From an uncultured delta proteobacterium (GTDB lineage: Bacteria > Myxococcota_A > Polyangia > Polyangiales > B10-G4): a DNA stretch of 64,000 nucleotides. The stretch is from NCBI GenBank assembly GCA_963727445.1, contig CAVSGI010000014.1, positions 352,001 through 416,000 of the forward strand. The letters are read 5' to 3'. Position 1 is the first letter of the stretch; every line of letters starts with the position of its first letter. Made by a program: the position numbers. Positions 35,101-38,100 of this stretch are shown piece after piece.

Positions 35101-38100
35101 AACAGCGCCACGCGAAAGTACGAGCGCCCCGACTCCGGCCAGAGCGACGACGACCTGCCCCCGCTTCATCAGCTCCGAACCGACCCCAGCGACATCAGCG
35201 TCGAGCTGCTCGAGAGCGAGCCCCGCCTCGAGTCGGGGGTGGAGCGGACGGGCGGCCACTCCCGCGCCCTCGGCCAGGACCCCTTCGGCGAAGAGGACCG
35301 CAAGGCCACGACCAGCGTCATCGACGAGGTCGCCGCCCGCCACCAGCGCCTGCTGTGGGCCGGCGCGGTGGTGATGCTGCTCCTCGCCGCGGGCATCGTG
35401 GGCACGGTGATCGCGATGGCGGTCTCGGACGACGAGGCGGCGCCGGCGCCGGCGAGGATGCAGGTGGTGGAGCCGGAAGGGGGAGGGGGAACGGGAACGG
35501 AAACGGGAACGGGAGCGGGAACGGGAACGGGAACGGGAACGGGAGCGGGAACGGGAACGGGAACGGGAACGGGAGCGGGAACGGGAACGGGAACGGGAGC
35601 GGGAGCGGGAACGGGAACGGGAACGGGAACGGGAACGGGAACGGGAACGGGAGCGGGAACGGGAACGGGAACGGGAACGGGGACGGGGACGGGGACGGGA
35701 GCGGGAGTGGAGGCGGGGGCCGCGGTTACCGAACCACTTATCGAAGTGTCGATGCGGCGGCGGGCGGGGATGCGGCGAGCGACGATGCGCGTCGAGGCGA
35801 TGACGACCACGACGACGACCACCACTGAGCCCACGCCGCCGCCCACGATGGAGGCCGAGACGGCGATGGGGATGCCGGACAACCCCTACCGCGACCTCTG
35901 AACCGTGCCGCCACGCCGGAAAGGCGGCATACTCCCCCGCATGATGCGCGGTCCTCTCGCGACGCTCGGCGCCCTCGCCATCGGGGGTTTGGCCGTCGTG
36001 CTCGCGGGATGCGACACCTTCCCTGACACCTTCGACTGCACAGCCGACAGCCAATGTCGAAGGGGCTCCGCCCGCGGGCTCTGCGTCGGCGGCGCCTACT
36101 GCGCCTTCGACGACTCGAGCTGCTCGGCCACCGGGCTCCGCTACGACCGAACGGCCGGCGGCGGCAACGCGGGCCAGTGCGTGCCCCCCGGCGGCACCCG
36201 CGACACCGGCACCTTCCCCGACGAGGGCCTCCTCAACGACTGCGGCGGCACGGGAACCCTGCCCGCCCGCGTGCTCGACCCCTGCGGCAACTGCCTGCTC
36301 GGCCGCTATCAATGCGATGGTCAGAACGCGCTTCGCTGCGAGGGCGACCCGACCAACGAGGTGGACATCACGAGCGAGGGCTACGTGAGCGCGTCGAGCA
36401 CCTACAACGCGAGCTTCATGGCCGCCAACGCCGTCGACGGCAGCCGGATGACCTCCTGGTTCTCGGCCGGCCCGGAGGGCGACGGTTCACCCACGACCTT
36501 CGACTGGGAAGTCCGCGACGACGAGTGCATCGTCGGCATCGACTTCTACGGCAACGGCGACAACGCCGACGCGATGTACCGCACCGACTACGGCTTCGGC
36601 TCGATGACGGTGCAGATCCTCGACGCCGCCGACGGGGTCCAGGCCTCGGACAGCCGCATGCTCGCGGGCACGCCCGACCCGGAGCAGCACATCGACATCC
36701 AGGGCTACGGGCGCACGGTGCGGCTGCTCTTCACCGGCCACGAGTCGCCGGACTGCGGCGGCTTCAGCGAGCTGGTGGTCACCGCCGCACGACCTTAGAG
36801 AGCTTCTCGATCTCGCGCGCGCGCAGCGGACGGTACTCGCCGGGCCTCAGGCCGTCGATGCTCACCCCGGCGAAGGAGGTGCGCGACAGGCGCATCACCC
36901 GCCGCCCGAGGGCGTCACCCATCCGCCGGATCTGCCGGTTCTTGCCTTCCTTGAGGGTCAGCTGGATCCAGGTGTGCCCCTTCTCCTGCCTGAGAACGAA
37001 GCACTCGGCGGGCTTGGTGACGTAGCCGTCGTCGAGCTTGACGCCGTTTCGGATCCGATCGAGCTCGGGCACGTCGAGGTGGCCCTTGAGCTTGACCACG
37101 TAGACCTTGGGCACGTCGCGGGCGGGCCTGAGCAGCGCCTCGCTCATCTCACCGTCGTTGGTGAGCAGGAGCGCGCCGCTGGTGTGGTAGTCGAGGCGAC
37201 CGACGGGAAAGACCCGCTCGGGGATCCCCTTCAGGTAGTCCTGGACGGTCTCGCGCCCCTCGGGATCGGACAGCGTGCTCACCACCGCGCGCGGCTTGTT
37301 GAGGACGTAATAAGCCGGCTTCTCGCGCACGATGCGCCGTCCGTCGACCTCGATCTTGTCGCGGCGCGCGTCGGCCTTCGTGCCCAGCTCGCTCACCACG
37401 CGACCGTTCACGCGCACCCGGCCCTCGGTGATCAGCTTCTCCGAGGCGCGGCGCGAGGCGACCCCGGCCGCAGCCAGGATCTTCTGAAGGCGTTCCTTGG
37501 CCATTCAGACGGCGTCGGGGTCTTGTCCGCCCTCGTCGTCCGTGGCGCCTTCCACGTCTTCGGCGTCTTCCTGCGCCGCTTCCTGCGCCCGGCGCTCCTC
37601 TTGCTCGCGCCGGAACTCCTCGTCGCGATCCCAGCGGTCGACGCGTCCGTCGCCGTCGAGGTCCTCGCCCATGCGGATCATCCGGCCGTCTTCGTAGTAC
37701 TCCCAGCGGTCTGGCTGCCAGTTGGTGGCGGTGCTGCGCCCCGCCATGTCGCGCTCGGCGCGCACCGGGTGGCCGTCCTCGTAGTAGATCTTGGTGTCGA
37801 CCCGGCCGTTGCCCGCCGTGTCCTGCTCGATGCGGACGATGCGACCATCTTCGAAGAAGATGATCTCGTCCATCTGGCCGTCGAGGTTGCGGTCGGCCTC
37901 TTCGCGCAGGGGCCGCCCTTCGTCGGTGTAGTAGCGCACGACGTCCTTGACGCCGTCGCCGTTGAGGTCGGCCTCGCGACAGACGAGGACCAAACGGATC
38001 GCCGGGGGATCCCCGACCCGGAGAAAGACCTTGCGGACGTCGGGCCATTCGTCGCCCGTGGTGTCGTATTCGCTGACCTCGTGCCGCTGGTCCTCGCCCT

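Follow-up and report, generated by a model that had tools for sequence, protein, structure and literature searches.

What places a long, orderly run of a single hexanucleotide inside the reading frame of a signalling gene, and what keeps it there? The question is raised by a (GGGAAC)n array in an uncultured delta proteobacterium (assembly GCA_963727445.1, here G000), which lies in a window of 64,000 nucleotides (contig CAVSGI010000014.1, positions 352,001 to 416,000); coordinates below count along this window unless a contig is named. The array, reported by an earlier survey of the genome, is real and in frame: TRF describes 35487..35706 as a period-6 repeat of 36.7 copies with 92% matches and the consensus GGGAAC, and ORF translation reads about 36 units on the forward strand (35487..35702) as GGA-ACG codons, giving (Gly-Thr/Gly-Ala)n. 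Head-to-tail copies of a unit of 1 to 6 bases define a microsatellite, and this array is one. It has internal structure as well, with a higher-order 30-bp pattern of GGGAGC followed by four GGGAAC units, multi-unit internal duplications, and a degenerate 3' end.

The array belongs to a Ser/Thr protein kinase ORF of 737 aa on the forward strand (33688..35901; Pfam Pkinase, E = 1.5e-34), whose start codon is not certain. Its kinase domain, at aa 65-293, is followed by a single membrane helix at about aa 553-590, encoded by 35344..35457 (forward strand; Kyte-Doolittle window and by-eye reading) roughly 10 codons 5' of the array. The array itself occupies aa 597-674 and leads into a 57-aa C-terminal tail ending in NPYRDL.

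Across this large, GC-rich genome, counting runs of at least six units with at most one mismatch per unit reproduced the survey's figures identically, at 59 runs and 709 units, 37 on the plus and 22 on the minus strand. Many of these runs are pieces of one array, and merging runs within 120 bp left 39 arrays: 25 in genes, 11 bracketing five copies of a cassette of four-helix-bundle genes, and 3 upstream of or between genes. The last group includes an array of 48 units that precedes a lipoprotein gene by 75 nt and is co-oriented with it. AACGGG was again the commonest period-6 class, although TRF assigned it 31 of 123 arrays of at least 60 bp where 29 of 130 had been noted. Most units are either GGGAAC (459 of 796) or GGGAGC (141 of 796), and variants are mostly transitions. 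Proto-arrays of two to four units were not in excess: we found 19 clusters outside arrays, about 10 of them of two units, which is approximately the chance level. Thus, birth in situ by slippage is not evident. Among sequencing runs, only three shared 6-11% of the sampled words, all three of them stored as contigs, and a wobble-degenerate flank pattern for the array loci had 0 matches in metagenome contigs.

The arrays inside genes follow a strict rule. In all 25, assigned on third-position GC, open frames, and Pfam hits, the G-rich strand is the sense strand; this upholds the rule proposed from 20 of 20 cases and extends it to a larger set. Only two readings occur, as the survey had also found, with counts of 17 Gly-Thr (GGA-ACG), 7 Gly-Asn (GGG-AAC), and 1 undecided in place of 14 and 6. 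The other four of the six possible readings were absent from these 25 arrays by flank frame test and translation, with 0 Glu-Arg and 0 antisense cases, and an antisense ORF at the C24 array had no family match in Pfam. Why the Val-Pro frame is missing is not obvious, given that proline-rich linkers are common in the same proteins. The survey's warning that indel errors could alter unit counts was well placed, since such errors are present inside arrays. In 8 of the 25 genes, the frame read before the array is not the one read after it. A 7-base unit, probably a consensus error and a source of frame breaks, is present in three arrays, and outside the arrays the assembly breaks the frame of a miaB-like gene. 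This leaves some of the frames, and every unit count, uncertain.

The carriers are not homologous to one another. On the sense strand, Pfam identified Pkinase in 5 array-bearing genes, as well as Toluene_X, FecR, TPR, FHA, M16, radical SAM, multihaem cytochrome, and BNR domains, and a further search added a second FecR protein and a TPR protein. In the kinases, FecR-type and TPR proteins, and FadL-type outer-membrane channel, the arrays occupy low-complexity spacer segments, in keeping with the linker role suggested for the first, second, and last of these. A signal peptide, lipobox, or membrane helix lies upstream of the array in 21 of the 25 genes, judged by hydropathy and by-eye reading; most arrays come directly behind such a signal or helix, in proteins that are exported or anchored in the membrane. 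We also scanned the whole genome for dipeptide repeats flanked by coding sequence, but shadow frames confounded the result, which was set aside.

That one DNA-defined hexamer underlies both linker types was part of the survey's finding, and codon usage bears it out. Gly-Thr arrays use GGA, which makes up 8.4% of Gly codons, and outside arrays GGA-ACG accounts for only 6.3% of 5783 Gly-Thr pairs. The rarity of this codon, together with the use of two frames and the occurrence of arrays in non-coding DNA, indicates that the unit is fixed in the DNA itself and does not result from codon choice.

The repeat is a genuine and strikingly orderly hexanucleotide microsatellite, but it is not private to the genus. 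Counting windows of six units with at most two mismatches gave 327 in this genome, 283 in its congener G001, and 0 for the reversed-pattern control, in line with the reported abundance in both species. The claim that it is lineage-private is not supported, and its lack in other Polyangiales is not confirmed: G035, from another family of the order, has 285 windows, 17 other genomes of the order have 1-18 each, and at least 116 stretches, belonging to many phyla, contain the exact sequence (GGGAAC)8. The distribution is patchy, with 0 windows in the congener of G035 (G066) and a burst of a different repeat, (GGGCAA)n, in a further family (G115). By a GC3 test that is noisy, 80 of the wide-taxon (GGGAAC)8 loci were mostly intergenic or unclear; 43 had no coding flank, 4 were sense coding on both sides, and 1 was antisense in discordant frames. 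The (GGGCAA)n loci were likewise unclear by the coding-flank test. Reverse transcriptase was considered as an array maker and rejected, because PF00078 matches occurred in all five genomes tested, with arrays or without. We found no published description of the GGGAAC repeat in the literature on microsatellites and hexanucleotide repeats of prokaryotes and myxobacteria.

Related genomes, even those of one genus, mostly carry their arrays at sites that are not orthologous. In G001 the window kinase ortholog keeps the helix and the tail, joined by an (EEVVV)4 linker and with no array, and the site of the TPR-protein array holds a Pro/Glu linker in the G001 ortholog and (EA/ET)n in homologs from the other family. 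Among about nine G001 arrays that could be mapped, one is at a site common with G000, and its unit structure there is different. Kinase orthologs of G035 and G066 are about 90% identical, yet only the former carries an array. A further comparison concerns a hexamer-repeat block of about 560 bp in G035 between two convergent stop codons. In G066 the two stops lie side by side, and in the outgroup G138 they are contiguous, so the block is a clean insertion and did not grow from a seed. A whole array block can arrive at a site that held no seed repeat.

We consider it reasonably probable that a microsatellite acting at the DNA level, combined with selection on the encoded peptide, accounts for these observations without a dedicated regulatory device. 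Arrays would grow, shrink, and homogenise through replication slippage or unequal exchange, and steps of six bases would preserve the reading frame. Loops of about six bases escape mismatch repair in E. coli. New arrays may also start out as preformed blocks. If, as we assume, the peptide is under purifying selection, only sense-strand Gly-Thr and Gly-Asn arrays would then be left, and the survivors would sit in segments that tolerate a flexible, uncharged spacer. A further contribution may come from selection against template-strand G-quadruplexes. The outcome would be a set of fast-evolving tethers between a membrane anchor and a domain.

It is possible, though we hold it only tentatively, that the sense-strand rule arises from nucleic-acid structure and not from the peptide, either because a G-rich template blocks RNA polymerase or because a G-rich non-template strand and R-loops drive expansion in the transcribed orientation only. 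The repeat was said to be G-quadruplex-prone, and it does fit the canonical motif of at least four runs of at least three G with loops of 1-7 bases. ViennaRNA predicts consecutive three-layer quadruplexes on the G strand only; the modelled folding energy of the sense strand is -110.6 kcal/mol when G4 terms are included and -34.5 when they are left out, and that of the antisense strand is -0.6. This predicted asymmetry would suit the 25 of 25 sense arrays. It would also suit arrays upstream of genes, which are mostly co-oriented with the gene, as with the 48-unit array and the one at C6:497864 in this genome and 3 of 4 in G035. Structure alone is harder to reconcile with the lack of Glu-Arg, a reading of that same strand seen in 0 of the 24 decided arrays, so that selection on the product must act as well. 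Nor does it account for the right-hand array of the cassette described below, which is antisense to four-helix-bundle gene B, or for a G001 array that fills the spacer between convergent genes and is hence antisense to one of them. The structural account is compatible with the microsatellite-plus-selection reading. On leading and lagging strands, local GC skew was uninformative, with long genes co-oriented with skew in 469 of 946 cases. Where |skew| reached 0.01 or more, 7 of 25 arrays were on the strand with G excess, and these cases are not independent.

A different origin, which we regard as doubtful, is suggested by the four-helix-bundle cassettes: the arrays may be arms of a family of compact, probably mobile cassettes, with solo arrays, those in genes among them, as "empty" arms or footprints, so that the cassette, and not local slippage, would spread the hexamer. 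The cassette of the window illustrates the arrangement. A HEAT-repeat gene on the forward strand (41333..43906; HEAT_2, E = 1.7e-94) ends in a TGA stop (43904-43906) that directly abuts the left array, about 50 units on the forward strand (43905..44205; TRF and run count). Next comes a perfect hairpin with a 25-bp stem (44224..44288, forward strand; read from the sequence), whose 3' arm holds the start codon of gene A and which is conserved in other cassette copies. Gene A encodes 113 aa on the forward strand (44276..44617; TIGR02436, E = 9e-20; PF05635, E = 8.6e-21). Gene B is convergent with it and encodes 108 aa on the reverse strand (44662..44988; TIGR02436, E = 9.4e-13; PF05635, E = 2.6e-11); both TIGR02436 matches are above the cut-off. 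A second perfect hairpin with a 25-bp stem, also identified by reading the sequence, lies just upstream of the gene B start codon (44996..45063, reverse strand), and a variant-rich array of about 19 units on the forward strand (45115..45228; TRF and run count) closes the right flank.

The association between these genes and hexamer arrays is close. The core exists in exactly five copies of 81-95% DNA identity, and (GGGAAC)n is found on both sides of all five, as the survey had described for the cassettes. All 11 four-helix-bundle loci of this genome have a period-6 array within 1 kb, although arrays of this period total only 18,294 bp in a genome of 9.47 Mb. The genes form four protein clades, each with its own hexamer. 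The single G001 homolog examined begins right after a (GGGAAC)n-type array, hexamer arrays flank 18 of the 18 loci examined from 31 matches in G035, and 4 of 10 matches in G066 lie within 400 bp of hexamer stretches. The gene-less array block inserted in G035 also fits a mobile arm. We found no description of this link in the literature on TIGR02436 and PF05635.

Other observations argue against the cassette as the vehicle. No cassette lies near 28 of the 39 arrays, and no partial copies were found in the genome outside the five cassettes or beside any solo array, which led us to reject solo arrays as cassette footprints. Few arrays elsewhere adjoin a four-helix-bundle ORF (2 of 80 wide-taxon (GGGAAC)8 loci, 2 of 16 loci in G035, 1 of 15 in G001, and 1 of 20 in G115), and the other cassette hexamers, CGGATT, GGCGTT, and GCGTTT, have not spread through the genome. 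Both arms have the same polarity and are direct, not complementary or inverted; an array of opposite polarity lies within 400 bp of just 2 of the 39, which also disposes of foldback arms. No transposase, excision product, terminal inverted repeats, or target-site duplication were seen on non-systematic inspection of the cassettes and junctions, and the cassettes contain no ORF other than the two four-helix-bundle genes. Rfam returned nothing above its gathering score at arrays or cassettes, and PADLOC returned no match for the four-helix-bundle proteins.

These facts can be combined in another, bolder way that we judge unlikely. The hexamer arrays might be the working ends of an undescribed, compact TIGR02436 element, of which each clade would have its own hexamer, and the GGGAAC arm might have left the cassette in a few lineages. 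It would then have become a self-propagating microsatellite, predicted to form G-quadruplexes and arriving in ready-made blocks, which selection would have kept only where it is read as Gly-Thr or Gly-Asn, in dozens of envelope and signalling proteins. If true, a selfish DNA repeat would have been domesticated as a membrane-proximal tether in all of these proteins.

It is quite unlikely, in our judgement, that arrays are kept because their variable length is useful, as evolvable tethers that set the reach of periplasmic sensor or partner domains from the membrane. Such a role would agree with the position of 21 of the 25 arrays after an export signal or membrane helix, with the shared juxtamembrane position of the array in two old paralogs (41-49% identical), and with the hypervariability of that spot between close relatives. 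However, orthologs fill it with unrelated low-complexity sequence, so any spacer appears to serve, and the same repeat thrives in non-coding DNA. An assembly artefact, or ORFs called across pure repeats, could draw on the indel errors described above but is close to refuted, since the repeat occurs in three independently assembled genomes and many named records, and the flanking coding sequence matches Pfam domains on the sense strand.

Returning to the microsatellite under peptide selection, the genome offers a natural experiment on which dipeptide repeats, and which G-quadruplex-type strand, a bacterium tolerates inside its genes. It also departs from an existing generalisation that links long simple repeats of prokaryotes chiefly to host-dependent organisms (PMC4060949), whereas this is a large genome of free-living type with 39 long arrays. 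In the portion of a published survey used here, myxobacteria make up four of the five bacteria with the most low-complexity regions (PMC6821194). The arrays are low-complexity regions of the kind it covers, and that portion traces such regions neither to a single dispersed DNA repeat nor to any rule of strand and frame (PMC6821194). The scattered bursts, of (GGGAAC)n in G000, G001, and G035 and of (GGGCAA)n elsewhere, should become datable and dissectable once closer genomes exist. The link between hexamers and four-helix-bundle genes ties a microsatellite to an enigmatic and widespread gene family, and the own hexamer of each gene suggests what the proteins or transcripts of the family act on.

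Several known systems share parts of this picture. In the staphylococcal Clf/Sdr proteins, a Ser-Asp dipeptide-repeat stalk of variable length acts as a spacer between the cell anchor and the functional domain. Here too, tandem DNA encodes a dipeptide repeat, which separates a folded domain from an anchor or export signal. Clf/Sdr, however, is one homologous family of the Gram-positive wall with an 18-bp unit, whereas the present hexamer is shared by non-coding DNA and 25 or more unrelated genes, in which it is read in two frames. The Drosophila period gene contains a (Thr-Gly)n tract that derives from hexanucleotide repeats and evolves by slippage; the resemblance is to a hexanucleotide-encoded Thr/Gly tract, but period is a single eukaryotic locus with mixed codons, and ours is a DNA-defined unit at many loci. 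The contingency loci of Haemophilus and Neisseria carry short tandem repeats in or before genes that change by slippage. Their units are not multiples of three and produce on/off switching by shifts of frame or promoter spacing, which steps of six bases cannot do, and the survey's view that these hexamers cannot phase-vary thus stands. The human C9orf72 repeat, GGGGCC, is likewise a G-rich hexamer that fits the G-quadruplex pattern, and its six readings yield six dipeptide repeats. It is a pathological intronic expansion read by non-canonical translation; the GGGAAC arrays, in contrast, are in-frame parts of genes and are read in two ways only.

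The window array (35487-35706, plus strand) was resolved by TRF as period 6 with 36.7 copies, 92% matches, and the consensus GGGAAC. It lies in frame within a 737-aa ORF (33688-35901, +) and is translated as (GT/GA)n. Two further (GGGAAC)n arrays in the window share its polarity, one of about 50 units (43905-44205, +) and one of about 19 units (45115-45228, +). Across all 27 contigs of the source genome (9.47 Mb, about 69% GC), we called a run wherever six or more units carried at most one mismatch per unit, and this reproduced the survey's finding exactly: 59 runs and 709 units, with 37 runs on the plus and 22 on the minus strand. 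Many of these runs are pieces of a single array, and merging those within 120 bp left 39 arrays. Genes contain 25 of the 39, the flanks of five four-helix-bundle cassettes hold 11, and 3 are otherwise intergenic. The window also carries a short (CCCTCG)6 tandem repeat (38369-38406) and 2.1 copies of a 48-nt unit, GGCGACGAAGGG... (55711-55834).

Placement inside genes was based on open frames, the third-position GC of both flanks, Pfam, and reading of the translations. The 25 in-gene arrays are at C2:67758, C4:148730, C5:94876, C6:502487, C8:504167, C9:828542, C10:46564, C10:141297, C10:267392, C10:552357, C10:720978, C10:908912, C10:1170754, C11:106030, C12:218750, C14:91736, C14:332287, C14:387487 (the window array), C15:228319, C16:65465, C20:209762, C20:321478, C21:713984, C24:40908, and C27:258106 (contig:position). 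In all 25, the coding strand is the G-rich strand. Seventeen are read as Gly-Thr (GGA-ACG), seven as Gly-Asn (GGG-AAC), and one, on C2, is undecided; the C2 and C10:267392 arrays stand at the extreme start of their open frames and may precede the true start codon. GC3 left the strand of the C24 array undecided; its sense ORF matches FecR (E = 1.5e-12), and its antisense ORF is without any Pfam match. None of the 25 is read as Glu-Arg or in the antisense readings Val-Pro, Phe-Pro, and Ser-Arg. Because the Glu-Arg frame lies on the same strand as the two frames in use, its absence argues that selection acts on the product.

By Pfam, the arrays lie on the sense strand of five Pkinase genes, four TPR genes, two FecR genes, a Toluene_X gene, and genes matching FHA, peptidase M16, BNR, radical SAM, and multihaem cytochrome. 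Hydropathy and by-eye reading placed the array downstream of a signal peptide, lipobox, or single membrane helix in 21 of the 25 genes, with two recurrent layouts: (i) a cytoplasmic kinase, FHA, or receiver-like domain, a membrane helix, (GT)n or (GN)n, and a periplasmic domain or short tail, or (ii) a signal peptide, an acidic Glu-Thr or Ser-Glu stretch, (GT)n, and a domain. The window kinase follows the first layout, with its kinase domain at aa 65-293, a helix near aa 553-590, the array at aa 597-674, and then a 57-aa tail. These positions indicate that the arrays fill membrane-proximal, low-complexity spacers.

The source genome and its congener G001 are distant, their best kinase matches sharing only about 52% identity. 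In G001, the ortholog of the window kinase retains the helix and, at its C terminus, the NPYR tail; its linker is an acidic (EEVVV)4 stretch, and it carries no array. Two paralogs in the source genome (41-49% identical) each carry (GT)n after the helix; at this position, a Pro/Glu linker stands in the G001 ortholog and (EA/ET)n in homologs from the other family. When the flanks of 15 G001 arrays were mapped onto the source genome, about nine were placeable, and one of these coincided with an array. This is the BNR protein at C10:1170754, in which a signal peptide is followed by (GT)n in both genomes, with different unit structure.

Two congeners from another family, G035 and G066, are about 86-90% identical in flanks. 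Their orthologous kinase carries an array in G035 only, inside a linker whose sequence is hypervariable in this pair. Elsewhere, the stop codons of two convergent genes are adjacent in G066, and in the outgroup G138 the match runs unbroken over the junction (sequences L206 and L208); G035 has about 560 bp between these stop codons (L035:3604-4160). The block is degenerate period-6 sequence in which the GG and C positions stay constant; its core is pure GGGAAC, and to the left runs a degenerate C-rich stretch. Given the arrangement in G066 and G138, the G035 block is an insertion at a site without a seed. In accord with this, proto-arrays of two to four units showed no excess in the source genome, where 19 clusters lie outside arrays, about 10 of them with two units only, near chance.

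The survey had described a DNA-level repeat serving as a protein spacer and private to its genus. A single hexamer indeed encodes Gly-Thr and Gly-Asn spacers; the privacy did not survive a count of windows in which six units held no more than two mismatches. The source genome has 327 such windows, G001 has 283, and G035, which is 100% complete and belongs to another family, has 285; its congener G066 has none. Any GGGAAC window occurs in 20 of 401 sampled genomes of the order (the source genome counted), and only the source genome, G001, and G035 have more than 18. Exact (GGGAAC)8 also reaches distant taxa, with at least 116 stretches in the species-representative collection, of which the 80 listed trace to roughly 65 assemblies on a hand count of titles. 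The matches listed include several Rhizobium and Streptomyces species, Planctomycetota, Actinomycetota, Burkholderia, Paenibacillus, and archaea, with one array in most assemblies and several in a few. The reversed pattern (CAAGGG)n, or (GGGCAA)n, which served as the control, is itself abundant in other members of the order (G115 has 79 windows, G189 has 24, and G166 has 21), so G3N3 hexamer bursts recur with differing units. In G115 (family f9), (GGGCAA)n forms about 30 short loci of 6-9 units (e.g. C73:7946-7993); this genome has 42 TIGR02436 matches, and just one (GGGCAA)n array has a TIGR02436 gene within 500 bp.

The 914-bp cassette core occurs in exactly five copies in the source genome at 81-95% DNA identity, the cassettes spanning window 43905-45228, C6:404991-406733, C14:127583-128832, C25:75684-76912, and C27:289257-291334. 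Each of the five is bracketed by (GGGAAC)n arrays of like polarity, as direct rather than complementary arms. The window copy runs from an array through a first hairpin, which overlies the start codon, to the convergent genes A (+) and B (-), a second hairpin, and an array; genes A and B each match TIGR02436 and PF05635. The hairpins (44224-44288 and 44996-45063) are perfect and have 25-bp stems; at each gene they cover its start codon or its ribosome-binding region. They are kept in the other copies and could act as translation masks or processing sites. A 97-nt element with internal hairpins also lies in or beside cassette arrays (C27:289159-289253, 289305-289401, and 291178-291274; C6:404870-404966), in four copies at 98-100% identity plus one partial copy on C11, and gave nothing above the gathering score in Rfam.

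A period-6 array lies within 1 kb at all 11 four-helix-bundle loci of the source genome (15 matches), where such arrays total just 18,294 bp. The proteins fall into four clades (79-100% identity within, 30-48% between), whose hexamers are GGGAAC (two clades), CGGATT, and GGCGTT/CGCGTT; a C11 locus outside the clade assignment has GCGTTT. Purine-rich hexamer arrays flank 18 of 18 fetched loci in G035 (from 31 matches), often matching in unit type on the two sides, and purine-rich hexamer stretches lie within 400 bp of 4 of 10 matches in G066. The one G001 homolog inspected begins directly after a (GGGAAC)n array. This link makes an element-borne origin of the arrays, from the cassettes, a serious rival, if to our minds a rather unlikely one. 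The converse association is weak: a four-helix-bundle ORF is near 11 of 39 arrays in the source genome, 2 of 16 in G035, 1 of 15 in G001, 1 of 20 in G115, and 2 of 80 wide-taxon loci.

The longest perfect array (48 units) is intergenic and shares its orientation with a lipoprotein gene that lies 75 nt downstream. Beside this array, L221:1003-1165 (equal to C14:205802-205964) holds a long hairpin, at which Rfam gave only sub-threshold matches to miRNA-precursor models, followed by a sequence of about 45 nt, ending ...gaaagttgaaaagtgtagaccgtcccc, in two direct copies. In the window, the TGA stop of a HEAT-repeat gene directly abuts the 50-unit array (43904-44208), which that gene's frame would translate as (Thr-Gly)n until an in-frame TGA just past the last unit. 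Two G001 arrays (L061 and L063) likewise begin at or beside stop codons.

The repeat unit itself is set at the DNA level. GGGAAC is common to the Gly-Thr frame, the Gly-Asn frame, and non-coding DNA; among the Gly codons of 1879 long ORFs, GGA accounts for only 8.4%, and GGA-ACG makes up 6.3% of 5783 Gly-Thr pairs outside arrays. The 796 array units comprise 459 GGGAAC and 141 GGGAGC, the rest being mostly single transitions. Genome-wide, TRF found 123 period-6 arrays of 60 bp or more; AACGGG is the commonest class (31 arrays, 5423 bp), ACGGAG (GAGACG, Glu-Thr) ranks second with 25 arrays of at least that length, and AGCGGG has 6. ACGGAG arrays often adjoin (GT)n inside shared spacers, and one transition per codon separates GAGACG from the (GT)n unit. 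The G-rich strand matches the canonical quadruplex pattern, and ViennaRNA predicts -110.6 kcal/mol with G4 terms versus -34.5 without for the 216-nt sense strand, and -0.6 kcal/mol for the antisense strand. Template-strand quadruplexes may add to the sense rule, besides the product selection to which the missing Glu-Arg frame points. Chance cannot be the source of the GGGAAC runs, the longest of which has 48 units versus a maximum of 6 for other orders of these six letters.

The mechanism put forward by the survey (slippage, G4 formation, and spacer tuning) remains inferred. The arrays would change length and homogenize via slippage or unequal exchange, in steps of six bases that would preserve the reading frame, and selection would purge them wherever they took one of the four other readings or fell in a structured part of a protein. 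For the seeding of new arrays, block insertion is shown once, in G035. In E. coli heteroduplex repair, loops of about six bases escape mismatch repair. In the window array, a 30-bp super-unit recurs and the 3' end is degenerate, as expected under multi-unit duplication.

A single 7-base unit (GGGAAGC or GGGAGAC) shifts the frame in three in-gene arrays (C10:908912-908983, C10:1170754-1170900, and C27:258106-258153), probably through consensus errors where units vary, and the coding frame differs between the two sides of the array in 8 of 25 genes. Unit counts and some frames may thus be wrong, and apparent frameshifts at arrays should not be taken as phase variation on the assembly alone. A miaB-like radical-SAM gene in the window is split, away from any array, over two frames (45297-46283 and 46027-46746), a sign of either assembly indel errors or a pseudogene.

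Coding dipeptide repeats and low-complexity linkers are already known, and in the literature we found no published description of a link between hexamer arrays and four-helix-bundle cassettes. What is new is the use of one hexamer across many genes under a strict strand and frame rule, together with its scattered bursts and its tie to these cassettes.
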